IMG/VR virus record: IMGVR_UViG_3300017605_000626
Span: 64,001 to 124,036 of that record
DNA: 60,036 nt
Strand: one strand, 5' to 3'
Source of the DNA: a virus
Lineage: Duplodnaviria; Heunggongvirae; Uroviricota; Caudoviricetes
Shown here: positions 4,164 through 60,036 of the stretch, piece by piece
Position numbering within the stretch: position 1 is the stretch's first letter
Layout: each line of letters opens with the position of its first letter
Translations under genes and position numbers: made by a program
The notes under the pieces: generated by a model
What the model was told of the DNA's origin: nothing
The model's database searches: none
What the model saw: only the letters and a program-made list of their open reading frames with translations

Positions 4164-4991
4164 ATGTCTACGAACGACAACAACGGTTCGGCTGTAGTGG
4201 AAGATACAAAACCAGAGAAGCTTGATTTTACTGACGCTCAGCAAGCTTATATTCAAACTTTAATAGACAGGGCTGTTGGTAAAACAGGCGCTGCTTATAA
4301 AAAGAAAATGGAGCCGCTGGAAACTACTGTTTCTACTTTGACTCAAGAACTAGAGGATGCAAAAGAACAATTGAAAAACGCAAAAACTTCTGGTGACAAA
4401 TCTGACGCCAAGGATCTAGTCGAATCATTGCAGGGACAGTTGGATGAAACAAGAAAGGTGTATAAAGAAGTTGCTAACGAGTTGGAATCATACAAGAAAA
4501 ATATTTTAGAGAAAGATAAACTTGTTGAAAGAACCAAAGAAGACATGATTGAGGTTCGAAAAATTAATTCTATTAAGCTTGCTATGGGCAAGATTGAATG
4601 GGTTGATGATGAGGCTGTAGAAGAGATCACTAAGAAATTTGTTAAGTATGACCCAGAGGAGGATGACTTTTTTGTTGTTTCTGAGCCAAAGGCTACGCAG
4701 CCTAGATTAAATGCTGCAATGCAGAAAATGACATTACAAGAGTTTTATCAGGATTACGCACAAAATAAAAAGCATTTAGTTAAAGGTGATTTGAAATTTG
4801 GTACAGGTTCCGGAGAGTCAAACCGTTCAAGTTTGACTGGAAAGAAATACACTACTGAAGATTTATTTACCAATAAACCAGGATCTGGTAAGCGAGCTAT
4901 GGAGCTAAAGCGCCTCGATCCTAAGATGTATCAGCAGTTAAGACAGACTGCCATTGAAGAAGGCAAGCTGGCTAAACCAAAATATTTTTAA
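4164..4991 (+). CDS. Capsid scaffolding protein
   Basis: Acidic/coiled-coil 275 aa directly before the capsid gene; TDAQQAYIQTLIDRAV start and GTGSG near the C-terminus are typical of scaffolds. Confidence 0.75.
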   Translation: MSTNDNNGSAVVEDTKPEKLDFTDAQQAYIQTLIDRAVGKTGAAYKKKMEPLETTVSTLTQELEDAKEQLKNAKTSGDKSDAKDLVESLQGQLDETRKVYKEVANELESYKKNILEKDKLVERTKEDMIEVRKINSIKLAMGKIEWVDDEAVEEITKKFVKYDPEEDDFFVVSEPKATQPRLNAAMQKMTLQEFYQDYAQNKKHLVKGDLKFGTGSGESNRSSLTGKKYTTEDLFTNKPGSGKRAMELKRLDPKMYQQLRQTAIEEGKLAKPKYF

Positions 4992-5014
4992 TAATTTAGG
5001 AGTTAACATATAAT

Positions 5015-49551: not shown

Positions 49552-50258
49552 TAGATTTTATTTAACCTCGCAAATTTACCAAAATATTTTACCGCAGCCT
49601 CATTGTATGCTTGTGCAGCTTCTATTTCTGTTTTAAATCTACCTAGACTAATTCTTTTATAGTTTAATCCAATTTGTGATACCCAAGTTTTATATGTTTT
49701 ACACCACCACACGCCTTTGTATTTACTTGTAATGAGTTTCTTTCCTTTATAATTTTGTTTTTCTTTGTTCTGTGAATTTTGTAAGTTAGTGGCCTCCCTT
49801 AAATTTTCTTTTCTATTGTCTAAACCATTACCATTTTTATGGTCTACCTGTTTGTCTGTAGTTATTAGTAAGCGGTGTAATTTTACATGATATCCTTTTG
49901 ATTCAGATTGAACATAGAATTTAATATTGTTTTGGTAGTTGTAGTTAGCCATTAAATACCATCTATAATCTTTTACCTTATCATAATCTTCTTTATCAAT
50001 TAGGCAAATTTTTTGGCCATGCTTAGGCGACTTAATTATAATTCCTATAGTTTTATTGTCAATTTCTACTATATTATTTACATGTATTTTCCCACATGAC
50101 TTTGTACTTCCATCTTTTAGGGAATCGCTCCTTACTACTGTTTTATTGCCACAAGTACATAGACAATTCCATCTTTGGCGGCCATTTTGATCAGTGTGGC
50201 TGTAACCTAATACTTTTAAAAAGCCAAATTTTTTACCTGTTAGATCTTTAAATTTCAT
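49551..50258 (-). CDS. HNH-AP2 homing endonuclease
   Basis: VDHKNGNGLDNRKENLR; SKYKGV..AAQAYNEAAVKYFGKFA (AP2). Confidence 0.92.
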   Translation of the reverse strand: MKFKDLTGKKFGFLKVLGYSHTDQNGRQRWNCLCTCGNKTVVRSDSLKDGSTKSCGKIHVNNIVEIDNKTIGIIIKSPKHGQKICLIDKEDYDKVKDYRWYLMANYNYQNNIKFYVQSESKGYHVKLHRLLITTDKQVDHKNGNGLDNRKENLREATNLQNSQNKEKQNYKGKKLITSKYKGVWWCKTYKTWVSQIGLNYKRISLGRFKTEIEAAQAYNEAAVKYFGKFARLNKI

Positions 50259-50836
50259 TTTTGACCTCTTAATGCTTTATAGTATTCTACGTTGTCGTGT
50301 CCTTTTCTATCTTTCAGAATTTCCATTAATTCTACTTCCGAGAAAGGCTCAGCCCTCCCTAATATTTCTATAGCACTATCAATACCTACATCCATAGATC
50401 TTCTTTCTGGAAAGAGATCATTTAATAACTTTTCTCTGTTGTTGTGCATATGCCCATAAAAATGGTATGAACCATGATGCGACTTGTCCCAGAATATCAT
50501 AGGGTAATGACAACACACTGCTAATGCCCCATTAAATAGTTTAAATGTTTTAGACTCTATTAGATTTGGGCCAAATGTTTGTCTGCTCTTTTGTTTGTTA
50601 TCATGATTTCCCAATATGAATATTACATTTTTGCATTTTATTTGCATTCTATGCTTTGCTGGATTTTTCCAAGAGAAATCACCAATGATAACCAGAGTAT
50701 CTTTAGGCCCCACCTTATTATTTATATTTTCCATTACTACTTTAGCATGTTCTTCGGGATTAGTAAAGCCTTTTCTGCCTAATTTAGTAATCAGATTATC
50801 ATGTTCTAGGTGTAAGTCCGCCGAAAAGAATAACAT
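50255..50836 (-). CDS. Calcineurin-like metallophosphoesterase
   Basis: ADLH, GDF, GNHD, HYP, GHMH, DVGID. Confidence 0.9.
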   Translation of the reverse strand: MLFFSADLHLEHDNLITKLGRKGFTNPEEHAKVVMENINNKVGPKDTLVIIGDFSWKNPAKHRMQIKCKNVIFILGNHDNKQKSRQTFGPNLIESKTFKLFNGALAVCCHYPMIFWDKSHHGSYHFYGHMHNNREKLLNDLFPERRSMDVGIDSAIEILGRAEPFSEVELMEILKDRKGHDNVEYYKALRGQK

Positions 50837-50837
50837 A

Positions 50838-51071
50838 TTATTCCTGTTTGTTTTGTGCTTCTATTTCTTTCTCTTCTTCAATTCTTTTTAGCTGCGTTGT
50901 TAGGTTGCCTATGATATCAATATGAGAAAACAATATATCAATGGTTTGGTCATTTACTTTTAACAAACTATTTGAATGTTCAATTAAGCCTTTAATATTT
51001 TTCTTTAAACATTCATTTTCGTATGTAACTTCTTCGATCTTCTTCTCTAAAGCTGCTGTAGATTCTGACAT
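50838..51071 (-). CDS. Hypothetical coiled-coil protein
   Basis: ORF track. Confidence 0.5.
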   Translation of the reverse strand: MSESTAALEKKIEEVTYENECLKKNIKGLIEHSNSLLKVNDQTIDILFSHIDIIGNLTTQLKRIEEEKEIEAQNKQE

Positions 51072-51325
51072 TATTCCATTTCCTCTTCTTTTTGTCTTCG
51101 TCTTTTATCTTCTTTTTCTTTTAGTTCTGTTAAATTTCTTACTTTATTTTTTCTAAGAATTTCATTATATTCATAATCATCCCACCAACGAATATCTTTT
51201 GTAAAACCACAACCAGAGCAAATTATATTATTTTCATCTACACGATAAGTTAATTTTCCTTTATTTATCTCTTTACAACAAGAGCCGCCACACACTTGTT
51301 TAGTGTCACATTTAGGACAATTCAT
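51071..51325 (-). CDS. Hypothetical zinc-ribbon protein
   Basis: CPKC..C..CC..CSGC. Confidence 0.5.
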   Translation of the reverse strand: MNCPKCDTKQVCGGSCCKEINKGKLTYRVDENNIICSGCGFTKDIRWWDDYEYNEILRKNKVRNLTELKEKEDKRRRQKEEEME

Positions 51326-51396
51326 ATTTTATTTAAATTAGCAAATTCACCAAAATATTTAATAGCTGCTCCATTATATGCCTGTGCAGCTTCTAC
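51322..51396 (-). pseudogene. Remnant C-terminus of an AP2-domain homing endonuclease
   Basis: VEAAQAYNGAAIKYFGEFANLNKI* versus IEAAQAYNEAAVKYFGKFARLNKI* of the 49551 gene. Confidence 0.8.
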
Positions 51397-51397
51397 A

Positions 51398-52060
51398 TTA
51401 TTTAATACAATCCTCATAACTTACAATTTTTTCCTGAATGTCACTATAGGATTTTCTTTGTGAAACTAGGGCAGGATAGAATGAATAAGCTTTAATTTGA
51501 TTGTTGTCTTGAAGTTCAGCGTACATAATATCAAGTTGTTTATTTATATTCTCTGCCCAATTATCATTTTTACCTTTTATTTTGTTTATTATAACAGAAT
51601 AGGCCGAGCTTTTCAATGCATAAGCACTAGTGGTAAGTGACCAATTACATTTCATTACAAATTTATTTATAAGATGATCTCTTTTTCTTGTCCAACTAAT
51701 TTCATTGTGGTTGCTTCCCAAGTATAGTTGTTGCCAGTTATTAGGCACTAATTTATATCTTTCAGAGAAGTAGAAATCTATGCCTGGGTTTATCAGTGCG
51801 TCATCTTCTAGTATTAAAACAGAATCTAACTTCATAAGTTGTGCTAGTTCTATTATTTGGAGATGGCTTACTATGCATCCTATTTCTGCTGGTTTCAATC
51901 CCTTAGTAAAACCCCAAGGATTCCCTTTAACAGCTATTCTTCTTGTAGCTTTTATGCCTAGCTTATCTAGCTGTGCTTCCATTTGCTGGCGTCTGTCAGT
52001 GCGGTGCTCTAGGTTTATATAGAATATATGGGGGAAGTACCTGTTTAAGATTGAAGACAT
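51398..52060 (-). CDS. Glycosyltransferase family 25
   Basis: YINLEHRTDRR, EIGCIVSH, LILEDDA, AYAL. Confidence 0.9.
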   Translation of the reverse strand: MSSILNRYFPHIFYINLEHRTDRRQQMEAQLDKLGIKATRRIAVKGNPWGFTKGLKPAEIGCIVSHLQIIELAQLMKLDSVLILEDDALINPGIDFYFSERYKLVPNNWQQLYLGSNHNEISWTRKRDHLINKFVMKCNWSLTTSAYALKSSAYSVIINKIKGKNDNWAENINKQLDIMYAELQDNNQIKAYSFYPALVSQRKSYSDIQEKIVSYEDCIK

Positions 52061-52178
52061 TTATATCTTTTTGATTTCTTTTGTTTATCTAATTCTTTGT
52101 CTAAGGAATCTTGAATCCTTGCCAATACTTTTTTTGCTTTGTTATTAATTTTAGCTTTAGTTAATTTTGGGTTTCTTT

Positions 52179-52616
52179 TTACCAAGTTGGTTCCTTTCCG
52201 GCTCTAGCATCTCTCCATGTAAACTGTGGTGGTTCTAAATGTGGAGTATCTTTCTTTCTTCCGGGCCAATCTCCACCCCAAGCTAGCCCATATGATTTGG
52301 CAATTTGTGCAAATCGTCTAAAGAATTCTTCATTCCAAAAAACTTCTTTGCCTTTTCTGAAAGCAAAATCAACAGCAAAAGAAGGTTTATAGTTATGTAA
52401 GCTTTGATAAGCTTCAGCATGTGTGACAATTGGACCTGGTTTTGTTCTGCCTTGTGCATAAAGTTCTGTTTGTTCTTCTGGACTTCTGTATGTGCATGTT
52501 ATAAATACGTCTGGAAGCTCTGGTTCTATATTTCTTAATTTGTTCCAACCTTCTACCGCCTTAAGCCACCGAGATACTATTTCAGGGTGTAGATCCTCTA
52601 GTTTTCTTGATGCCAT
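52179..52616 (-). CDS. M15-family (L-Ala-D-Glu type) peptidase, probable endolysin
   Basis: TYRSPEEQTELYAQGRT, SLHNY..AVDF, WGGDW, DTPHLE; likely ATG at 52616. Confidence 0.9.
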   Translation of the reverse strand: MASRKLEDLHPEIVSRWLKAVEGWNKLRNIEPELPDVFITCTYRSPEEQTELYAQGRTKPGPIVTHAEAYQSLHNYKPSFAVDFAFRKGKEVFWNEEFFRRFAQIAKSYGLAWGGDWPGRKKDTPHLEPPQFTWRDARAGKEPTW

Positions 52617-52833
52617 TACTTCTTCTCCCACGTAGTTTTTGTTCTACGATATTAAGATTTTTACTGTAGTATGTTAGCTTTTCCTCTATTTCTTGTGAAG
52701 AAAATTGAACGCCGCCATACCTTAACTTATTGTCTATTAATATAGCCCAATCTGATGTGTTGACTACGGGCATTATAACTATATACTTATATTTCTTTGA
52801 ATCAATAATTTTAAAAAGCCTTGGTTGTCTCAT
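52582..52833 (-). CDS. Hypothetical protein
   Basis: ORF track. Confidence 0.45.
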   Translation of the reverse strand: MRQPRLFKIIDSKKYKYIVIMPVVNTSDWAILIDNKLRYGGVQFSSQEIEEKLTYYSKNLNIVEQKLRGRRSNGIKKTRGSTP

Positions 52834-53104
52834 TCTCTACTTTCAATAGACTTTTCTTTGTGGGTATAATTTTTTCTATGTCCCATACAGGCCCTGTTTC
52901 TATAAAGTTTTCTACTAGAATATCTGCGTCTGTAACTATACTAGTTACTTTAGTTATTGTATATATTCTTTTAACATCATTGATGAATAGTGCGTGTAGT
53001 CCCACCTTGAGCTCAGGAGTGTTTATTAACCATTCTTGTCTATGGTCTAGAACGTCATCATCAAAATTTTCAAATTCAACTAATATAGCTTGTTTATTAA
53101 TCAT
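52811..53104 (-). CDS. Hypothetical protein
   Basis: ORF track. Confidence 0.45.
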   Translation of the reverse strand: MINKQAILVEFENFDDDVLDHRQEWLINTPELKVGLHALFINDVKRIYTITKVTSIVTDADILVENFIETGPVWDIEKIIPTKKSLLKVENETTKAF

Positions 53105-53639
53105 CTGTGCAAATGTCCAATTCTCTCCATCTCTTAAGAAACAGTTCTTTACCTTGTTTAAAGCTTTTCGCAGGCTCCCAATCTATTTTCTTTAATATCT
53201 TCTTAGCTCCAATGCTATCTTCATCGCCCCAATATACTACACGTTCTATCAAATATGCAAGCTCATCAAATTCTTTAACTCTTTCCCAAGCCGCCTTATC
53301 ATTAAAGATTTTATACTTATTTAAGATAAGTAGTGTAGCACCATGTTCTAATTTTCTATAGTTAGGAAGAAGTATCTTTAAAGGTCTGGGCACTTCAACA
53401 TAGTAACTTTCTCCAGTGTCGTGCCCTAGCCCTAAAGGCTTGTATTTCTTTTCTTTAACTAAGTAACTGACCAATCTACTGTGGTCGTTTATAGGGCAAA
53501 ATCTTTTTGAATGCCCACCATATCGACATAACTGTGAGCCAGAATGCGCTATATCCTCTATAGTTACATTGTCAATAGTCTTATGAAAGTTAGATAAATC
53601 TATATAGTTATTACTTACTGTTCGTATAATATTACTCAT
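53097..53639 (-). CDS. HD-domain phosphohydrolase (YfbR-like)
   Basis: IEDIAHSGSQLCRYGGH, DHS, GHDTGESY; AAGGA RBS. Confidence 0.8.
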   Translation of the reverse strand: MSNIIRTVSNNYIDLSNFHKTIDNVTIEDIAHSGSQLCRYGGHSKRFCPINDHSRLVSYLVKEKKYKPLGLGHDTGESYYVEVPRPLKILLPNYRKLEHGATLLILNKYKIFNDKAAWERVKEFDELAYLIERVVYWGDEDSIGAKKILKKIDWEPAKSFKQGKELFLKRWRELDICTDD

Positions 53640-53655
53640 TTACTTCCTTTAAATT

Positions 53656-53735
53656 TGGTCCCACTGACGGGATTCGGACCCGTGATAGCCAGCGTGACGG
53701 GCTGGTGCATTGAGCCAGACTTTGCTACAGTGGGA
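53656..53735 (-). tRNA. trnD: tRNA-Asp(GTC)
   Basis: TCCCACT acceptor, CCAGC-CCGTCAC-GCTGG anticodon arm, encoded CCA. Confidence 0.85.
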
Positions 53736-53810
53736 TGGCTGGAGGGGTGGGATTCGGACCCACATATTCTTCATTAACAGTGAAGCGCCTTGCCTGTCGG
53801 CCACCCGCCA
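53736..53810 (-). tRNA. trnN: tRNA-Asn(GTT)
   Basis: CTTCA-CTGTTAA-TGAAG anticodon arm, encoded CCA; abuts tRNA-Asp. Confidence 0.85.
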
Positions 53811-54044
53811 TTAAAAATCTTCATCTAATATGTTTGATATTAATTCCCAAGTACATTTTTTTTCATGCGGATCTTGCCAATCCTGCCCGCAAAATAAACA
53901 TTTGTGGCTAAATTCATCGTAGCAAGACATTCTAGATGTTATCTCCCACATGTATGTTTTTAACTTGGAGAACTTATCTACGTTATTTATCATTCTTATT
54001 AATACTTTTGGTTTAATAAGTGACACATCAATTTTTTGTAGCAT
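53811..54044 (-). CDS. Hypothetical protein (trimmed start)
   Basis: ORF track 53811..54092 overlaps a tRNA; in-frame ATG at 54044 (MLQK). Confidence 0.5.
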   Translation of the reverse strand: MLQKIDVSLIKPKVLIRMINNVDKFSKLKTYMWEITSRMSCYDEFSHKCLFCGQDWQDPHEKKCTWELISNILDEDF

Positions 54045-54064
54045 ATCTTTATTTTCAATAAGTT

Positions 54065-54151
54065 TGGTAGCGGGATTGGGAGTCGAACCCAACTGGGCAT
54101 TAAAGCCATAAGCTTATGAGACTTACAAGTCACCGTAACTACATTCCCGCA
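54065..54151 (-). tRNA. Atypical tRNA with CAT anticodon and long variable arm (Ile2/Met/other uncertain)
   Basis: TAAGT-CTCATAA-GCTTA; 16-nt variable region with GGC-TTTAAT-GCC; TTGGG-TTCGACT-CCCAA; U1:U72 mismatch; ACCA end. Confidence 0.75.
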
Positions 54152-54159
54152 TTATATTT

Positions 54160-54235
54160 TGGAGCCAATGAAAGGAGTTGAACCCTTAACCTTCGCATTA
54201 CAAATGCGCTGCTCTGCCAATTGAGCTACACTGGC
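54160..54235 (-). tRNA. trnT: tRNA-Thr(TGT)
   Basis: GCTC-AATTGGCA-GAGC D arm, TTTGTAA loop, CCA. Confidence 0.9.
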
Positions 54236-54241
54236 TAATTA

Positions 54242-54331
54242 TTACCAAGATTGATAATTGTCTATGTCTACTCCATCAAATACAAATATAAGAACTATTA
54301 CTGCAATTAGAAAAGCAAGTAATCCTATCAT
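54242..54331 (-). CDS. Tiny single-TM protein (29 aa)
   Basis: Translated by hand: MIGLLAFLIAVIVLIFVFDGVDIDNYQSW*; its ATG overlaps the candidate promoter, so the two calls compete. Confidence 0.3.
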   Translation of the reverse strand: MIGLLAFLIAVIVLIFVFDGVDIDNYQSW

Positions 54332-54350
54332 ATCTAAAGTTTTTTGTCAA
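54322..54350 (-). promoter_or_regulatory. Sigma70-type promoter upstream of tRNA-Thr
   Basis: TTGACA-N17-TAGGAT with TG extension on the minus strand. Confidence 0.55.
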
Positions 54351-54377
54351 GTTCAAAATGGTTTATCTAGTAAAATT

Positions 54378-54938
54378 TTAATTAATTGCAGCTATTAATT
54401 TAGCTAGTTCTATAAATCTTTCTTGAGATAAACACATTTTCATATAATTAATATCTTTGTGAACCCATTGTATGTTATCCATTGTGTATCCTTTTGAAGA
54501 ATCAATTCTATCTAAAGAAGCTGTGTTTTCCCCATTGGCTAGCTTTTTAGAATTTTCGGCAAATTCTATAGGAAGTCCTGTTAATTTGCATTTTTTATCT
54601 TGTGCTATAAATAAGTTATAGGCATCTTCTATGGTTATTTCAATTGGAATATTTCTAGTTCTAGCGGTAGCTTTAATTCTACTCCAAATTGATCCTGATA
54701 GTTCTTTATAGCCATTAAATTGTGGATGATTTTGTCTCATTCTTGGCCAAATATTTTTTAAGCGTGAGCAACCACAAGATTTTGTTGGATATTTTTTTAC
54801 TTTTAACTTAGCTCCTATTACAGTTGTTAATTTTCCACAATCACATTTACATAAATAATATTTTCCTCTTTGAGTTTCTTTACGAATGTCATATACTTCT
54901 TCTAAAACCGTTAGTTGGTTGAATTTTAATCCTATCAT
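54378..54938 (-). CDS. HNH-like homing endonuclease
   Basis: CKCDCG, KSCGC, SLDRIDSSKGYTMDNIQWVHKDIN. Confidence 0.85.
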   Translation of the reverse strand: MIGLKFNQLTVLEEVYDIRKETQRGKYYLCKCDCGKLTTVIGAKLKVKKYPTKSCGCSRLKNIWPRMRQNHPQFNGYKELSGSIWSRIKATARTRNIPIEITIEDAYNLFIAQDKKCKLTGLPIEFAENSKKLANGENTASLDRIDSSKGYTMDNIQWVHKDINYMKMCLSQERFIELAKLIAAIN

Positions 54939-55431
54939 TGAATGGTTTATCCGTTAATATGTTTAAATAATATAATAATTTTTTGTGTAGTTTATCTTTC
55001 TTTTTAAATCCGTATTTTTCTGTAGCTATCTCTAGTATCCATTCTCTTATATCTGTTCCGAACTCTTCAGATCTAGCTTTAATATCACAAACTAGTTCCA
55101 TTAAATATACTTCAGGCATTAAGTGTATATTACCCCAATATTCAGGGTGATGGGGGTTAACTTTTACGTGATGTGCTATAGCACATTCTATTAATTCAAT
55201 TGGACCTTCTTCTTCTAATACTAGATATCTAAACTCTATACCATGAAATTTAGATTGGTCATGTATCATTCCGTTGGCTATGATCTGCCGCCCCATATCT
55301 ATATTAGTGTGGCGGCTTATTAAATATTCTCCTATTACTATAGTGCTTTCTTGTACATGCTTTATATGTCTTAATAGCCTATCTATACCCTTGGTATTTA
55401 TAGCTATTTCACTCTGTTGTGCGGCATTCAT
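54889..55431 (-). CDS. DUF5662-like (HD-related) protein
   Basis: HIKHV, HDQSK, HHVKVNPHHPEYW, ELVCD. Confidence 0.65.
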   Translation of the reverse strand: MNAAQQSEIAINTKGIDRLLRHIKHVQESTIVIGEYLISRHTNIDMGRQIIANGMIHDQSKFHGIEFRYLVLEEEGPIELIECAIAHHVKVNPHHPEYWGNIHLMPEVYLMELVCDIKARSEEFGTDIREWILEIATEKYGFKKKDKLHKKLLYYLNILTDKPFNDRIKIQPTNGFRRSI

Positions 55432-55721
55432 ATTTTATTTTGTTTGCATTTGTCGTACCATTCTTTGTTTAAAGCTTCTTCCTCCATATCAGCTCTGGTA
55501 CGTATTGCTCCAATTCTTTCTCTATATACTTGCCCAATTTCCCAACATCTTTTACAAAATGTACTTGGGTAATCACCGTAATCTCTTGGGTCATATACTC
55601 TATGTTTATCACATAAATCTTTTGAGCATAGCCTGCATTTTGCAGTTCCATTACTTGTTCCAGTGCAAATATCACAGGTATAAACGTATCTTTTTACAGT
55701 TTCTTCTGTTGTTTTTCTCAT
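55428..55721 (-). CDS. Zinc-finger protein (trimmed start)
   Basis: ORF track 55428..55898 runs through two tRNAs; in-frame ATG at 55721; CDIC..CRLC..CDKH..CKRC. Confidence 0.6.
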   Translation of the reverse strand: MRKTTEETVKRYVYTCDICTGTSNGTAKCRLCSKDLCDKHRVYDPRDYGDYPSTFCKRCWEIGQVYRERIGAIRTRADMEEEALNKEWYDKCKQNKI

Positions 55722-55728
55722 ATATTTA

Positions 55729-55817
55729 TGGCGGAGATAACAAGTTTCGAACTTGTTTGCCCTTTCGGACAACCTCAGTTTAGCAAACTGGTGCGTTTCC
55801 AAACCCGCCCTATCTCC
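55729..55817 (-). tRNA. trnS: tRNA-Ser(GCT)
   Basis: GGAGATA acceptor, CAGT-TTGCTAA-ACTG, long variable arm, GCCA. Confidence 0.85.
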
Positions 55818-55825
55818 TTTTATTT

Positions 55826-55912
55826 TGGCAGTGAGTGTCGGAGTTGAACCGACCAGAGTTTTACCTCCCGCAGTTTTCAGGACTGTTTGGCGTGCCACAT
55901 GCCGAACTCACT
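55826..55912 (-). tRNA. trnS: tRNA-Ser(TGA)
   Basis: AGTGAGT/ACTCACT acceptor, CAGT-CCTGAAA-ACTG, long variable arm, GCCA. Confidence 0.82.
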
Positions 55913-55919
55913 ATTATTT

Positions 55920-56177
55920 TTATTCAAATCCAGGAAATATTACTCTTTCTTTGATTGGTGGTTCTATTCTTTTTCTAGGATTAAGCCGACCACTTTGGAA
56001 GAATTTTTTATATTGGCCGCCTGGATCAGCGTCTACATCAATTAACAATGTGCCTTCCTTAGATAGATAAACTCCTCCTATTGGAGTACATACACTCTCG
56101 GCCGTTGAAAGAATTTTAGTGTCAGGTGAGTATTGTTTAAGCTGATTTAATAAATCTCTGACTGTATTAATTTTCAT
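55920..56177 (-). CDS. Hypothetical protein
   Basis: ORF track; AAGGA RBS. Confidence 0.55.
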   Translation of the reverse strand: MKINTVRDLLNQLKQYSPDTKILSTAESVCTPIGGVYLSKEGTLLIDVDADPGGQYKKFFQSGRLNPRKRIEPPIKERVIFPGFE

Positions 56178-56307
56178 TGTTTTTATCCTTATTTGTTTTT
56201 CCTTCTCTCTTCGAAATATCTTTCCAATTCAATTAGTAGTTTAAGTATAAGAGGCAATAATATGACTGAACTTATTAATAATAATATAGCTGGTGACATA
56301 ATAAAAT

Positions 56308-56386
56308 TGGAGGGAAGGGCGTGGATTCGAACCCGCGTTTTATAGGTTTTGCAGACCTATGCCTTTGGCCTCTTGGCTACCTCCCC
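56308..56386 (-). tRNA. trnC: tRNA-Cys(GCA)
   Basis: TAGGT-CTGCAAA-ACCTA; U73; CCA. Confidence 0.88.
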
Positions 56387-56571
56387 ATTACTCTATACTT
56401 TGTTTTTCTAGATTGTTTCCAATTTTTTAGTGGCCGTTTATTAGCATTTTCACCACGATTGTAAGGACATAAACCGCACTTAATTTTTCCTTTTTGTTCT
56501 AGTTCATGTTTCCTTACTTTATTAGCGACTGATCTATTAGTTTCTATTTTACTTAGTCTCTTTAGTTTCAT
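56377..56571 (-). CDS. Small basic hypothetical protein
   Basis: ORF track; lies between tRNA-His and tRNA-Cys, 3' end overlaps tRNA-Cys by 10 nt. Confidence 0.5.
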   Translation of the reverse strand: MKLKRLSKIETNRSVANKVRKHELEQKGKIKCGLCPYNRGENANKRPLKNWKQSRKTKYRVMGR

Positions 56572-56578
56572 AAAGAAA

Positions 56579-56652
56579 TGGGGTGTACGGAGCGAATCGA
56601 ACGCTCGTATTGTGGGTCACAGCCACTTGTCTTACCATTAGACTACGTACAC
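56579..56652 (-). tRNA. trnH: tRNA-His(GTG)
   Basis: GTGG-CTGTGAC-CCAC; C73; CCA; position -1 is T, not G. Confidence 0.85.
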
Positions 56653-56655
56653 AGT

Positions 56656-56728
56656 TGGTGGAGGTAGGGGAGTTGAACCCCACTTATTGAATGCAAATCA
56701 ATCGTGCTCCCATTACACTATACGCCCC
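56656..56728 (-). tRNA. trnA: tRNA-Ala(TGC)
   Basis: ATTGA-TTTGCAT-TCAAT; G3:U70; bulged C in the acceptor stem. Confidence 0.8.
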
Positions 56729-56733
56729 GAAAT

Positions 56734-56810
56734 TGGTCAGGATGGATGGATTCGAACCACCGGCCCCTCGGTTCCAGGCCGAGAACTCTACCAGACTGAG
56801 CTACATCCTG
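56734..56810 (-). tRNA. trnP: tRNA-Pro(TGG)
   Basis: CAGGATG acceptor, CTCGG-CCTGGAA-CCGAG, ACCA. Confidence 0.9.
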
Positions 56811-56815
56811 AAGCT

Positions 56816-56953
56816 TTAAACTTGTGATTTAAGTACATAATATAGCAGTACTATAAGAAGTGCTGCTACTATTAAATCTGTTAAATGTGTAAACATAAAG
56901 TTCATAATTTTAATCTCTGAATAAGATGGTATTGGTCTAATAAATTTATACAT
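56816..56953 (-). CDS. Small membrane protein (trimmed start)
   Basis: In-frame ATG at 56953 just downstream of the tRNA-Tyr-like CCA; hydrophobic C-terminus. Confidence 0.4.
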   Translation of the reverse strand: MYKFIRPIPSYSEIKIMNFMFTHLTDLIVAALLIVLLYYVLKSQV

Positions 56954-56957
56954 AATT

Positions 56958-57049
56958 TGGTGTAGACTGGTTGAATTGAACAACTCGCTCGACACTCCAC
57001 AATGTTTAATGAGCATCCGGGTTACAGCCGGACATGGAGAACAGCCTAC
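56958..57049 (-). tRNA. D-arm-less tRNA-Tyr(GTA)-like RNA with giant variable arm
   Basis: GTAGGCT/AGTCTAC-A-CCA acceptor; TCCGG-CTGTAAC-CCGGA; GTTG-TTCAATT-CAAC; only a 10-nt linker in place of the D arm. Confidence 0.72.
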
Positions 57050-57057
57050 TTATATTT

Positions 57058-57131
57058 TGGTAGCGGGACTAGGAATCAAACCTAAATTTTTCGCTCATCA
57101 GGCGAACTTTCTATCATTGAAATATCCCGCT
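57058..57131 (-). tRNA. trnI: tRNA-Ile(GAT), divergent D and T loops
   Basis: AGCGGGA/TCCCGCT-ACCA; TTCGC-CTGATGA-GCGAA; T loop TTTGATT. Confidence 0.75.
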
Positions 57132-57132
57132 A

Positions 57133-57216
57133 TGGTAGCCGAAGAAGGAGTCGAACCTTCAAAGATTTCTCCGGTTGGGTTTGAGCCAACTGCGTTTACC
57201 GTTTCACCATTCGGCT
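57133..57216 (-). tRNA. trnL: tRNA-Leu(CAA)
   Basis: GTTGG-CTCAAAC-CCAAC; long variable arm; ACCA. Confidence 0.88.
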
Positions 57217-57357
57217 TTAAGTAGAACATTTATAATCTTTTATTACCTTTATCTCTTTGCAATCAGTACATTCATAAGTCATTTCCCACGTACTAACTGG
57301 TTCTTTTATTATCTTAGCTTTAATACATTGCCATGTGTGGTTGTGTTCCATAAGTTT

Positions 57358-57440
57358 TGGTCCCATCTAGAGGACTTGAACCTCTACGCCCGAAGGCACA
57401 CGCTTCTAAGGCGTGCGTGGCTGCATTACACCAAGATGGG
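57358..57440 (-). tRNA. trnL: tRNA-Leu(TAG)
   Basis: CACGC-CTTAGAA-GCGTG; GCC-TTCG-GGC variable arm; ACCA. Confidence 0.88.
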
Positions 57441-57647
57441 TTTGTTTACTGTTACTTCTATTTTTTCTATATCGTAAAAGTCTGATATATCTTCAAATAC
57501 TTTCTTACTCATCCTGTTTAAAATGTTTTCAAAATATATTTTTGTTTTTAAATCTATTGTAGAGATAATATCTTGTCTAGTTGGTTTATCTGTGAAGTAT
57601 AAAGTTGGTACGCTATCTTTCCAATTTCTGACTTTATATATAATCAT
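57426..57647 (-). CDS. Hypothetical protein
   Basis: ORF track; 3' end overlaps tRNA-Leu by 15 nt. Confidence 0.5.
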   Translation of the reverse strand: MIIYKVRNWKDSVPTLYFTDKPTRQDIISTIDLKTKIYFENILNRMSKKVFEDISDFYDIEKIEVTVNKPILV

Positions 57648-57862
57648 CTAGGAAATCCAAATATGTCATAAACAAACATCAAATATTTTCCTATTAAAGA
57701 AGCAATAAAACCCATTACTTTAATAAAACTAAGCGCAAACCAAGGCGACAATAACAGACATACTATACAACATACTAGTTTATGATCGCCCAGCCAATCT
57801 AAAATACTTTCTATTCTTTCTTCCCAACTATAATATATTCTCTTACTCACCTTTAGCCTCAT
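57644..57862 (-). CDS. Small membrane protein
   Basis: Hydrophobic central segment. Confidence 0.5.
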   Translation of the reverse strand: MRLKVSKRIYYSWEERIESILDWLGDHKLVCCIVCLLLSPWFALSFIKVMGFIASLIGKYLMFVYDIFGFPR

Positions 57863-58121
57863 GGTTATTTAATAGGGATATTATATCCCAAATTGTAGAT
57901 ACTGAGATATCAAATAATTCATTTCTCTGGCCTTCTTGGTTATTAAGATGAACTTCATCTATAAACTCATCCCATTCTTCTAGTACAAGACCTGTTGTTT
58001 CATGAATGTTATGGTGAGTTCCCCAACCTTTTCGGTCGGCCTTCTTAATAATAAACTCTCTTAACTGAGCTAAAGCTGTATCTATGTTTTCTATTGTTAC
58101 TGGTCTTCGCATTTGTGCCAA
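57843..58121 (-). CDS. MazG-like all-alpha nucleotide pyrophosphatase
   Basis: LVLEEWDEFIDEV..RNELFDISV = ExxE..ExxD. Confidence 0.65.
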   Translation of the reverse strand: MAQMRRPVTIENIDTALAQLREFIIKKADRKGWGTHHNIHETTGLVLEEWDEFIDEVHLNNQEGQRNELFDISVSTIWDIISLLNNHEAKGE

Positions 58122-58324
58122 CCCAATATCTCACAAATTCTAATGGTAAAATCCTGAAATACTTGTATATCATCCATATTCTGTTCAACTACTTCATAAT
58201 GTCTTATTTCGTTCTCCTTAATAAAACTTTTACATTCATTGAATAATCTATTTTTTGTCTCTAGTGTAGATTTAATTTGAATTTCTTCGTCTATTTCTTT
58301 TATTAATTCTTTAGTTATTTTCAT
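58097..58324 (-). CDS. Hypothetical protein
   Basis: ORF track. Confidence 0.5.
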   Translation of the reverse strand: MKITKELIKEIDEEIQIKSTLETKNRLFNECKSFIKENEIRHYEVVEQNMDDIQVFQDFTIRICEILGWHKCEDQ

Positions 58325-58334
58325 ATATATGTTT

Positions 58335-58408
58335 TGGCTCGGCGATTAAGATTCGAACTTAAATTAACGGAGTCAGAGTCCATTTTCTTACCATTAGAAG
58401 ATCACCGA
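58335..58408 (-). tRNA. trnQ: tRNA-Gln(CTG)
   Basis: TCGGTGA/TCGCCGA; ATGGA-CTCTGAC-TCCGT; GCCA. Confidence 0.88.
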
Positions 58409-58410
58409 AT

Positions 58411-58489
58411 TGGATGCGGGAACAGGAGGCGAACCGAAATTTCCCAACTTGAAAGGATGGTTGCCTAGTCCATTTAGCAGACAATGCCA
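58411..58489 (-). pseudogene. Degenerate tRNA-Glu(TTC)
   Basis: CCATC-CTTTCAA-GTTGG anticodon arm and CCA present; acceptor strands do not pair; T arm broken. Confidence 0.55.
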
Positions 58490-58491
58490 TA

Positions 58492-58728
58492 TTATTTTTT
58501 CTCAATTACTTCGTACTTCACACAAGCACCATTATGATGATTTTTCAAAGCTAATACACTGTATAATATAGAGCCGGAATGAAGCCAAACTCCAATCCAA
58601 TTCTTTCTTTTTGCGTTGTATGCAATACCTAGACCGTGTAATGCCACAAGAGAGCCATGTACAAAAATACAAAGTCTTTCTAATTCTTCATTATAAATAA
58701 AACTTGATTTACTAGTTTGTTGTTTCAT
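58492..58728 (-). CDS. Hypothetical membrane protein
   Basis: ORF track; His-containing hydrophobic helices. Confidence 0.5.
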   Translation of the reverse strand: MKQQTSKSSFIYNEELERLCIFVHGSLVALHGLGIAYNAKRKNWIGVWLHSGSILYSVLALKNHHNGACVKYEVIEKK

Positions 58729-59425
58729 TTAAAAACGCCATAATTTTATTATAGATGTCAGGATGAAAAAATTTTTTTATTTCTTTTAATGATAAGTTTT
58801 GTTTAACCGTGTTAAATTTATTGGTACATAAAACTACATTTCCTATAATGTACCCGTTTTCTGGAATTATTTTGTCTATTGATAATTTTTCCCAATCTTT
58901 TATTGAACTTACTTTTAATTTTAATTTTTTTCCAGTATAGAAACATCTTCCATTTTGTTTTTTGTATAGGCTTAGCAAATACTCTGGAGTTATATTTAAA
59001 TTAGAACTTCTAGATTTTAAAGTGCTTATACGTTGTCCAAAGTATCCTATAGGGTCTTTTGCATATCTTTTTTTGTCTCTTTGATACTCACAACCTATAC
59101 AATGAGATCTATAATAAAATTTTATTTCTGGGTAAGGATGGTTTGTTGGTAATTTTCTTTCTTTTTGAATTGAAAACCTATCTAAAGGCAGTGTTTTATT
59201 ACAAGCTTTACATTTTATTTTATCTATGGCTATAAAATTAGGGCCTTGGTGCGGTGTTTTGCCTAATTTGAACGCACTTAATTTTTTATTTTTCTCTAAC
59301 CATGTCCCTACTGTTTTTCCGTCAATACCGAATTTTTTCGCTATAGCACGATTTGTTAGTCCTTTTTCATTTTCTAGTAATACTTGTTTTACTATTTCTT
59401 TTTTATTAAAAATTTTTCTTCCCAT
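58712..59425 (-). CDS. HTH plus HNH-like endonuclease
   Basis: N-terminal HTH; CKAC..CIGC; CFYTG, LSIDKIIPENGYIIGNVVLC. Confidence 0.82.
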   Translation of the reverse strand: MGRKIFNKKEIVKQVLLENEKGLTNRAIAKKFGIDGKTVGTWLEKNKKLSAFKLGKTPHQGPNFIAIDKIKCKACNKTLPLDRFSIQKERKLPTNHPYPEIKFYYRSHCIGCEYQRDKKRYAKDPIGYFGQRISTLKSRSSNLNITPEYLLSLYKKQNGRCFYTGKKLKLKVSSIKDWEKLSIDKIIPENGYIIGNVVLCTNKFNTVKQNLSLKEIKKFFHPDIYNKIMAFLNETTN

Positions 59426-59599
59426 TACTTATTATTATATTAATTAGAACAAAGTTTGCCAATGGTCGGAAGTTTCGTGGTCTTCCTAATGTTTTTATTT
59501 ACTTGTTGACTACCTAGTTTACCTCTAGAACAAGATGCCAGACATTAAACTGGTTGCTGTAATTGGTGAGATAATCCATCAACGTCGGCTCTAATCTTT

Positions 59600-59842
59600 C
59601 TATATAACCTTTATAGTCTCCGCTAAGAAAGTATTTTCTGTAAGAAATCCTGAGCATTCTACTTCTTTTCCTATGTATTGATTTAATTCTACATCACCAA
59701 ACACTGGTCCAGTTTTTCTTCTAAGTACTAGTCTTATACCGTCTTCATCAATAAAATGAGCTTTTCTTTCACTTTTACTTCCTTTACCGTATATATCATA
59801 ACTGACCATTCCCGTTATTACACACTTAATTGGTTTAGCCAT
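59600..59842 (-). CDS. Hypothetical protein
   Basis: ORF track; AAGGA RBS. Confidence 0.55.
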   Translation of the reverse strand: MAKPIKCVITGMVSYDIYGKGSKSERKAHFIDEDGIRLVLRRKTGPVFGDVELNQYIGKEVECSGFLTENTFLAETIKVI

Positions 59843-59926
59843 TGTATTCCTTTGTATTAATTAGAGCAAGTTAATTACGAGCATTTTTATCCCCTGAAGA
59901 TAACGGTAACAATTCGGTTCTAATTC

Positions 59927-60036
59927 ATTTATCCTTTCTTATTTAATCCTTCTAGGAACTTTTTCCAATAATCTTCTACACTTCTTGGTGGTCTAACATT
60001 GACTTCAGGATTGTCAATAACAAATTGTTCATGCCG
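59927..60036 (-). CDS. 3' end of a CDS truncated by the window edge
   Basis: Translated by hand: RHEQFVIDNPEVNVRPPRSVEDYWKKFLEGLNKKG*; stop position approximate. Confidence 0.35.

Follow-up and report, generated by a model that had tools for sequence, protein, structure and literature searches.

A tRNA-Tyr-like gene with ten nucleotides at the D-arm position

What can stand in for the D arm in a tRNA gene that has no room for a D hairpin? This question is raised by a 92-nt tRNA-Tyr(GUA)-like gene on the minus strand at positions 56958–57049 of the window, a term used here for the whole stretch of DNA analyzed (60,036 nt), which makes up the final 60 kb of an IMG/VR virus record of 124 kb with a G+C content of 33%. 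The gene lies in a minus-strand array of 14 tRNAs called by ARAGORN (53656–58408), with HNH endonuclease genes between them, and is encoded on the same strand as all 14. Its 5′ end is 8 nt downstream of the CCA of a tRNA-Ile(GAU) and its 3′ end is 147 nt upstream of a tRNA-Pro.

The three arms that are readily recognized, acceptor, anticodon, and T, had been called intact in the preliminary description, and a stem-by-stem reading of the sequence agrees with this (all features given here are on the minus strand). The 5′ strand of the acceptor stem, GUAGGCU (RNA positions 1–7; 57043–57049), pairs with AGUCUAC at 56962–56968 to give 7 bp, one of them G-U, and the 3′ strand is followed by the discriminator A73 and an encoded CCA (56958–56968 for strand, discriminator, and CCA together), an ACCA end being found in 65 of the 79 members of the family described below. 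The anticodon arm UCCGG-CUGUAAC-CCGGA (57016–57032) has a perfect stem and carries the anticodon GUA at 57025–57023. The T arm, GUUG-UUCAAUU-CAAC (56970–56984), is flanked by A (56985) and C (56969), an A.C mismatch at the would-be pair 49:65; in 69 of the 79 members, too, an A directly precedes the T stem. The same mismatch was observed in most members (alignments A3, A4, and A5), the window copy included, and because of it the T stem is effectively only 4 bp long.

Between the acceptor and anticodon stems there are only 10 nt, GUUCUCCAUG, at the position of the D arm, so the absence of a D hairpin, which had also been claimed, is confirmed. This segment was parsed as the linker GUU (RNA 8–10; 57040–57042), which is shared with 51 of the 78 other distinct members, followed by CUCCAU (RNA 11–16; 57034–57039), hereafter strand a and the candidate substitute for a D-stem strand, and a single spacer G (57033) on its 3′ side, a layout of the 9- to 10-nt type seen in the family. 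Strand a is complementary to a hexamer in the variable region, which spans 31 nt from the anticodon stem to the T stem and is closed by GCUC/GAGC. Its parts are, in order, the 5′ strand of the variable-arm basal stem (V stem), GCUC (RNA 36–39; 57011–57014); an A/U-rich linker, AUUAAACAUU (RNA 40–49; 57001–57010); strand a′, GUGGAG (RNA 50–55; 56995–57000), the partner of strand a; UGUC (RNA 56–59; 56991–56994), where the family has UGG or CGG; and the 3′ strand of the V stem, GAGC (RNA 60–63; 56987–56990), which pairs with GCUC. The linker before a′ measures 6–10 nt in the family and ends in AA in 57 of 78 members, and in UU in the window copy.

Of the 14 tRNAs that ARAGORN calls in the window, and the 17 over the full record, none is the gene at 56958–57049; as no other tRNA-Tyr was called by ARAGORN in the whole 124-kb record, it is the only gene there with a Tyr anticodon. 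A search of Rfam returned no match over the gene, RF00005 included, even at E ≤ 10. It had been suggested that standard scanners may overlook this gene, and both tools do.

Several other features of this region were observed. Most of the 147-nt gap before tRNA-Pro is occupied by a 29-codon ORF for the hydrophobic peptide MNFMFTHLTDLIVAALLIVLLYYVLKSQV (56816–56905, minus strand), which is the 3′ part of a 66-codon ORF (56816–57016) overlapping the tRNA-Tyr-like gene. Two HNH/endonuclease VII-like genes lie within the tRNA array (54378–54938 and 58712–59425, both on the minus strand), and a 5′-nucleotidase-like gene is located at 53097–53639. An 87-nt tRNA with a CAU anticodon, called by ARAGORN at 54065–54151 (minus strand), reaches 25.1 bits with RF00005, under the gathering score of 29, while the Ser(UGA) gene at 55826–55912 gives a weak match to tRNA-Sec (32 bits). 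A scan for promoters and terminators returned background levels only.

Relatives in viral contigs, metagenomes, and MAG tRNA arrays

When viral contigs were scanned for the 17-nt anticodon arm as an exact match, 41 loci were recovered, mostly ordinary tRNA-Tyr genes. At five of them, corresponding to four distinct sequences (L008, L028, the identical L009 and L024, and L025), the same odd layout was found, in which a short 5′ segment complements a 6-mer of the variable region, and the complementary sequences vary between loci. Three further pattern scans were performed in which the candidate pairing was left unconstrained. The first further viral scan returned 72 more matches, 56 of them distinct; the scan of a genome collection returned 13 members in MAG contigs, mainly of Hyphomicrobiaceae, Planctomycetota, and Rhodothermales, most of which are located in tRNA arrays; and the second viral scan returned at least 31 distinct members with other anticodon arms, including those with the usual CUGUAAA loop. 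A metagenome scan with the exact anticodon arm of the window copy gave eight loci, all of them family members and none close to the copy. As a result, more than 110 distinct relatives were obtained from viral contigs, metagenomes, and MAG tRNA arrays, with RNA lengths of 87–96 nt, longer than a normal tRNA. Since all search patterns fix the anticodon loop, conservation of the anticodon within this set arises by construction and is not evidence.

A covariance model, R1, was built from contigs L008 and L028 only, with the window gene left out. R1 scores the window gene at 48.2 bits (E about 1e-9), the third-lowest value among the viral members; the model keeps all genes with the odd layout (48–119 bits) apart from canonical phage tRNA-Tyr genes, none of which exceeds 33 bits. 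ARAGORN calls overlap only one of 98 members, and the failure of gene finders to recover this class follows from the helix being rebuilt with a strand of the variable arm. The one overlapping call (L114:8718–8815) is a 98-nt model that takes 11 upstream bases, from an AGUGUGU repeat, as a false acceptor strand. A second rewired tRNA was searched for at 50000–60036 of the window with model R2 and all filters off, and none was found.

No close relative of the window copy was found by three routes: a viral scan for its own T arm gave a single match, a chance one inside a coding region; the portal-protein relatives of this phage are short fragments with no member in them; and no member is present in the cultured phage closest to this one, Tunturiibacter phage Tunturi_4 (portal identity of 45%), an absence that is uninformative either way. 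When the gene, its 451-nt surroundings, and two other members were compared by blastn, an insensitive method, with 50,697 GenBank phage records, short anticodon-arm matches or nothing were obtained, so that no cultured phage with the family was identified by a comparison too insensitive for exclusion.

A long-range helix between the connector and the variable-arm loop

The pairing between strands a and a′ was evaluated over two sets of sequences. In the first, 61 distinct viral sequences in a model-fitted alignment, 99.2% of the cells of the a:a′ helix are paired, with double changes at four of the six pairs (one pair of columns has U-A in 29 sequences, C-G in 27, and G-C in 3), and the 18 distinct a:a′ haplotype pairs are all complementary. 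Sliding the partner columns by one to three positions lowers whole-structure pairing to 33–53% of cells, and none of 2,000 column shuffles reached the observed Watson-Crick count. The second set, in which the anticodon arms are different ones, comprises 33 distinct sequences that had been left out of model building and were likewise aligned by fitting to the model; it has 99% a:a′ pairing, with U-A to A-U transversions among the changes, and its anticodon stem covaries like a working stem.

Given that the pair counts of both sets come from alignments fitted to the structure of the model, alignment-free partner-swap tests were added. Strand a pairs with its own partner at −11.4 kcal/mol and with the partner from another sequence at −7.9 kcal/mol, and the corresponding values for the V stem are −6.1 and −3.7 kcal/mol; in each of the two tests, 0 of 5,000 permutations were as low. 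A reversed-strand control on the long-range pairing discriminates poorly (medians of −11.5 versus −9.6 and −10.1 kcal/mol), because C-rich and G-rich strands pair even when reversed, and we therefore relied on column covariation and the partner-swap tests. A GG no more than 3 nt 3′ of a′, mostly as UGG, is found in 67 of the 78 other members, and in all members listed (at least 31) from the second viral scan. These flanking motifs were counted by alignment column, a tabulation by duplexfold having been dropped since G-U over-extension blurred the helix ends.

Since the a:a′ helix crosses the V stem, the fold is a pseudoknot, and, judged from the covariation of both helices, they jointly form it throughout the family. 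The argument that the preserved pairing speaks against simple decay is thereby strengthened, homologs with compensatory changes being abundant. The proposal that the D arm is replaced by an unpaired segment, as in mitochondrial tRNA-Ser or tmRNA, did not survive the comparison, as the segment pairs with the variable-arm loop family-wide.

Array context and isotypes

In all but one of 98 members, every neighboring tRNA called by ARAGORN is on the strand of the member, and the spacers between a member and its neighboring tRNA are often only 0–12 nt. Among 41 distinct arrays that carry a member and have at least 15 other tRNAs, a canonical Tyr gene is present in 29%, in comparison with 71–100% for each other amino acid, which suggests that the members fill the Tyr slot of tRNA arrays.

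Rewired forms with other anticodons exist as well, namely a Cys(GCA) form with U73-CCA (L061:8433–8523, plus strand) and the single Arg(UCU) form seen (L275:7007–7095, minus strand), which has G73-CCA and a GG followed by A. The discriminator base tracks the anticodon in these forms. A20 is an identity element for ArgRS, and the A after GG in the Arg form would correspond to it.

Some member-bearing contigs have features of their own. In a Planctomycetaceae MAG contig (L168:3157–7702), 30 tRNAs called by ARAGORN are packed within 4.5 kb, and the rewired Tyr gene at 4924–5012 stands 6 nt and 3 nt from its neighbors, with no canonical Tyr gene there; arrays like this one are also present in L201 and L216. 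In one metagenome contig, a tmRNA whose tag is ADDYYTELALAA is encoded (L144:1226–1584), and a viral contig has a 97-nt gene with a CUA anticodon (L061:7763–7859), labeled tRNA-Pyl by ARAGORN, which may be an amber suppressor.

A proposed role in decoding

A tyrosine tRNA function appears to be the most likely reading of these data. We tentatively propose, at slightly less than even odds, that the members are working elongator tRNAs that are not cloverleaves, in which one D-stem strand, usually together with the GG, is placed 3′ of the anticodon arm and pairs back as a pseudoknot. They would be processed and used by the ribosome, and a host synthetase would charge them (with tyrosine, or, in the sister forms, with cysteine and arginine). 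In phages and mobile tRNA arrays, such a design may persist by escaping host nucleases or other factors that recognize a normal D-arm/variable core. In the case of the window gene, the RNA would be excised from a minus-strand polycistronic tRNA transcript. The pyrimidine-rich strand 3′ of the acceptor, CUCCAU, would enter the anticodon stem after one spacer base and therefore must hold the place of the canonical 3′ D-stem strand. Its partner GUGGAG would be located in the enlarged variable-arm loop, closed by a stem of 3–4 bp, with the two helices crossing. The second strand would come to lie where the 5′ D-stem strand normally is, and the UGG that follows it in most members where the D loop carries G18 G19, UGG being the presumed counterpart of these two bases, which dock on the T loop. 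The RNA would fold into an L shape with the long-range helix stacked on the anticodon stem in the place of the D stem. Host TyrRS could charge it by way of A73, the GUA anticodon, and the variable-arm helix; as no TyrRS/TrpRS-type synthetase (PF00579) is encoded in the record, a host enzyme would be needed. The charged RNA would then decode UAU and UAC for the phage. Membership in the family, the covariation of the two helices, and the genomic setting are demonstrated by the analysis, and from these we infer the three-dimensional arrangement, the processing, the charging, and the translational use alike.

The family could instead consist of non-decoding tRNA-like RNAs, acting as a decoy for nucleases directed at tRNA-Tyr, as a sponge that takes up TyrRS or a modifying enzyme, or as a processing or priming element. 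Charging is putative for all members when judged from sequence, and the canonical Tyr gene that accompanies a member in 29% of the large arrays would fit such a role. Host defenses do target tRNA-Tyr, as in the case of retron-Eco7, by which the tRNA-Tyr of the host is depleted; infection is then rescued by tRNA-Tyr genes of phages (PMC11555353). However, 71% of the member-bearing large arrays have no other Tyr gene, the discriminator follows the isotype in the Cys and Arg versions, the encoded CCA and the full acceptor/T geometry are kept, and the anticodon stem covaries as that of a working tRNA would. We thus consider a non-decoding family unlikely, and the genomic context favors a decoding tRNA-Tyr over a decoy.

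The copy in the window

The gene in the window is probably a divergent member of a widespread class of tRNAs, found in phages and tRNA arrays, in which a long-range helix takes the place of the D hairpin, and its membership in the family is well supported by the sequence comparison. It matches 35 of the 42 columns with at least 90% conservation, the disagreements being mostly compensated pairs or effects of alignment register, and none of its four helices is broken or contains a mismatch. The 6-bp complement CUCCAU/GUGGAG is present at the family position (−8.2 kcal/mol, below the mean strength in the family), as is the closing stem of 3–4 bp that crosses the long-range helix, GCUC with GAGC. 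Taken by itself, the a:a′ match of this copy is not significant, since about 10% of shuffles equal it, and the pairing in the window copy therefore rests on homology. The GG after a′ is absent (UGUC), and among the 78 others UGU is found only in L153.

It is conceivable that this copy, although a family member by descent, is impaired or decaying, with a poor elbow fold and little contribution to translation. Its UGU at a position where nearly all members have UGG or CGG would fit this, as would the UU that replaces the usual AA before a′, a long-range duplex weaker than the family mean, a competing hairpin that is absent from every other member, and the third-lowest R1 score among viral members. 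On the other side, the four helices are free of mismatches, the acceptor is intact, as are the anticodon and T loops, A73, and CCA, the agreement at conserved columns is that given above, the gene is the sole Tyr gene of its record, and UGU is shared with one other member, which together make an impaired copy improbable. As an AT-rich divergent member without the GG, the window copy is relevant to the question of what the design can do without.

The variable arm had been described as two-tiered, and this held for its basal 4-bp stem, while the upper hairpin (ACAUU/AGUGU, about −2.8 kcal/mol) can form in the window copy alone and would compete with a:a′. If the fold first described were right, the RNA would be truly D-armless and free of any pseudoknot; its 10-nt connector would stay unpaired, and its variable arm would have two tiers. 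The nested minimum-free-energy structure of the window copy (−26.9 kcal/mol) is identical to that fold, with the −2.8 kcal/mol contributed by the upper hairpin, and the a:a′ match is, as stated, not significant in this copy alone. Yet no other member has an equivalent of the hairpin, the folding energy of the inner loop having a median of 0 over 79 members; covariation between connector and variable-arm loop is seen in each of two independent sets; and among the nested energy terms the long-range helix adds −4.5 kcal/mol, exceeding the hairpin. Energy alone does not settle between hairpin and long-range helix, but homology favors the pseudoknot, and we regard the D-armless fold as very unlikely. 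That the gene is a chance look-alike, or merely the coding region of the ATG-initiated 66-codon ORF that overlaps its 3′ 59 nt, can be dismissed almost entirely given the R1 E-value of about 1e-9, the single weak PHROG match of that ORF (E = 0.009), and the position of the gene in register within the tRNA array.

Novelty and implications

The rewired, pseudoknotted class is apparently undescribed. No tRNA of this layout was found described within the portions of the full-text literature available, and in a 2020 review of non-canonical tRNAs (PMC7609411) neither pseudoknots nor phages come up in the available text; the motif DNAVirus_1423, which was compared by description only (see below), comes closest to a possible mention. 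If the members do decode, they would be a natural, non-organellar exception to the rule that elongator tRNAs are cloverleaves, and RNase P, TyrRS, EF-Tu, and the ribosome would have to accept a pseudoknotted core. Because the standard finders miss the members, inventories of phages and arrays wrongly seem to be without tRNA-Tyr. A defense that depletes tRNA-Tyr is a plausible selective setting for a rewired tRNA-Tyr, with no direct link between the two, and evasion of such host defenses by a structurally different tRNA-Tyr is a testable hypothesis. A tRNA with a different core could also serve as a scaffold for orthogonal translation systems.

Comparison with known systems

Pseudoknots are known from viral tRNA-like structures. 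Those of the TYMV type, at the 3′ terminus of RNA virus genomes, can be aminoacylated and reach a tRNA-like shape through a pseudoknot from which their acceptor arm is built, and they do not decode; in the rewired family, in contrast, the pseudoknot would form the D/variable core, and the gene stands alone and has an anticodon. Assignment to the tRNA-like domain of tmRNA was rejected, as a complete anticodon arm is present and neither ARAGORN nor Rfam finds a tmRNA at the gene.

DNAVirus_1423 (Fremin et al. 2023, PMC10690425) is a candidate structured RNA from IMG/VR, a motif that, in the available text of that study, overlaps ARAGORN tRNA-Tyr calls “only sometimes”, the corresponding value for the rewired family being one of 98 members. 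The motif is there termed only “tRNA or tRNA-like”, with no rewired D arm described in that text, and the comparison is one of descriptions. The allo-tRNAs and other 8/4 or 9/3 tRNAs (Mukai et al. 2017, PMC5389517, as far as its available text goes) are likewise non-standard, were drawn from bulk metagenome or phage sequence, and are missed or mis-called by standard tools. Their acceptor and T stems are altered in length, yet they remain cloverleaves, whereas the rewired family does not form one.

According to PMC7609411, tRNA-Sec has a 6-bp D stem and a 4-nt D loop. A likeness to the rewired family may be seen in the 6-bp helix at the D position, followed by a short segment of the U-G-G type, but in tRNA-Sec this helix is a local hairpin, the acceptor/T lengths are 8/5 or 9/4, and the tRNA is serylated. 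The D-armless mitochondrial tRNAs, such as nematode mt-tRNA-Ser, resemble the window gene in that they have no D hairpin and that only a short connector separates the acceptor stem from the anticodon stem. As described in the same review, their connector is unpaired and flexible, the RNA is shortened, and adapted organellar factors are needed; in the rewired family the connector is paired, the RNA measures 87–96 nt, and the setting is that of phages and bacteria. A D-armless assignment of the mitochondrial type was rejected since the connector covaries with the variable-arm loop.

In many of its parts the window gene resembles canonical class II tRNA-Tyr(GUA) (RF00005; for example, E. coli tyrT/tyrU and the T5 tRNA-Tyr). 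Both have a 7-bp acceptor followed by A73-CCA, the GUA anticodon in a 7-nt loop with U33, and a T loop of the form UUCRAnU; the variable region contains a helix in both, and both are found in tRNA arrays. The canonical tRNA-Tyr has a local D hairpin with G18 G19, which the window gene lacks. With its GUU and C-rich run, the segment that follows the acceptor is similar to positions 8–12 of E. coli tRNA-Tyr. Compared with the canonical cloverleaf, the rewired family appears to have the partner of its D-stem strand, together with GG in most members, in the variable-arm loop, where the pairing would close a pseudoknot.
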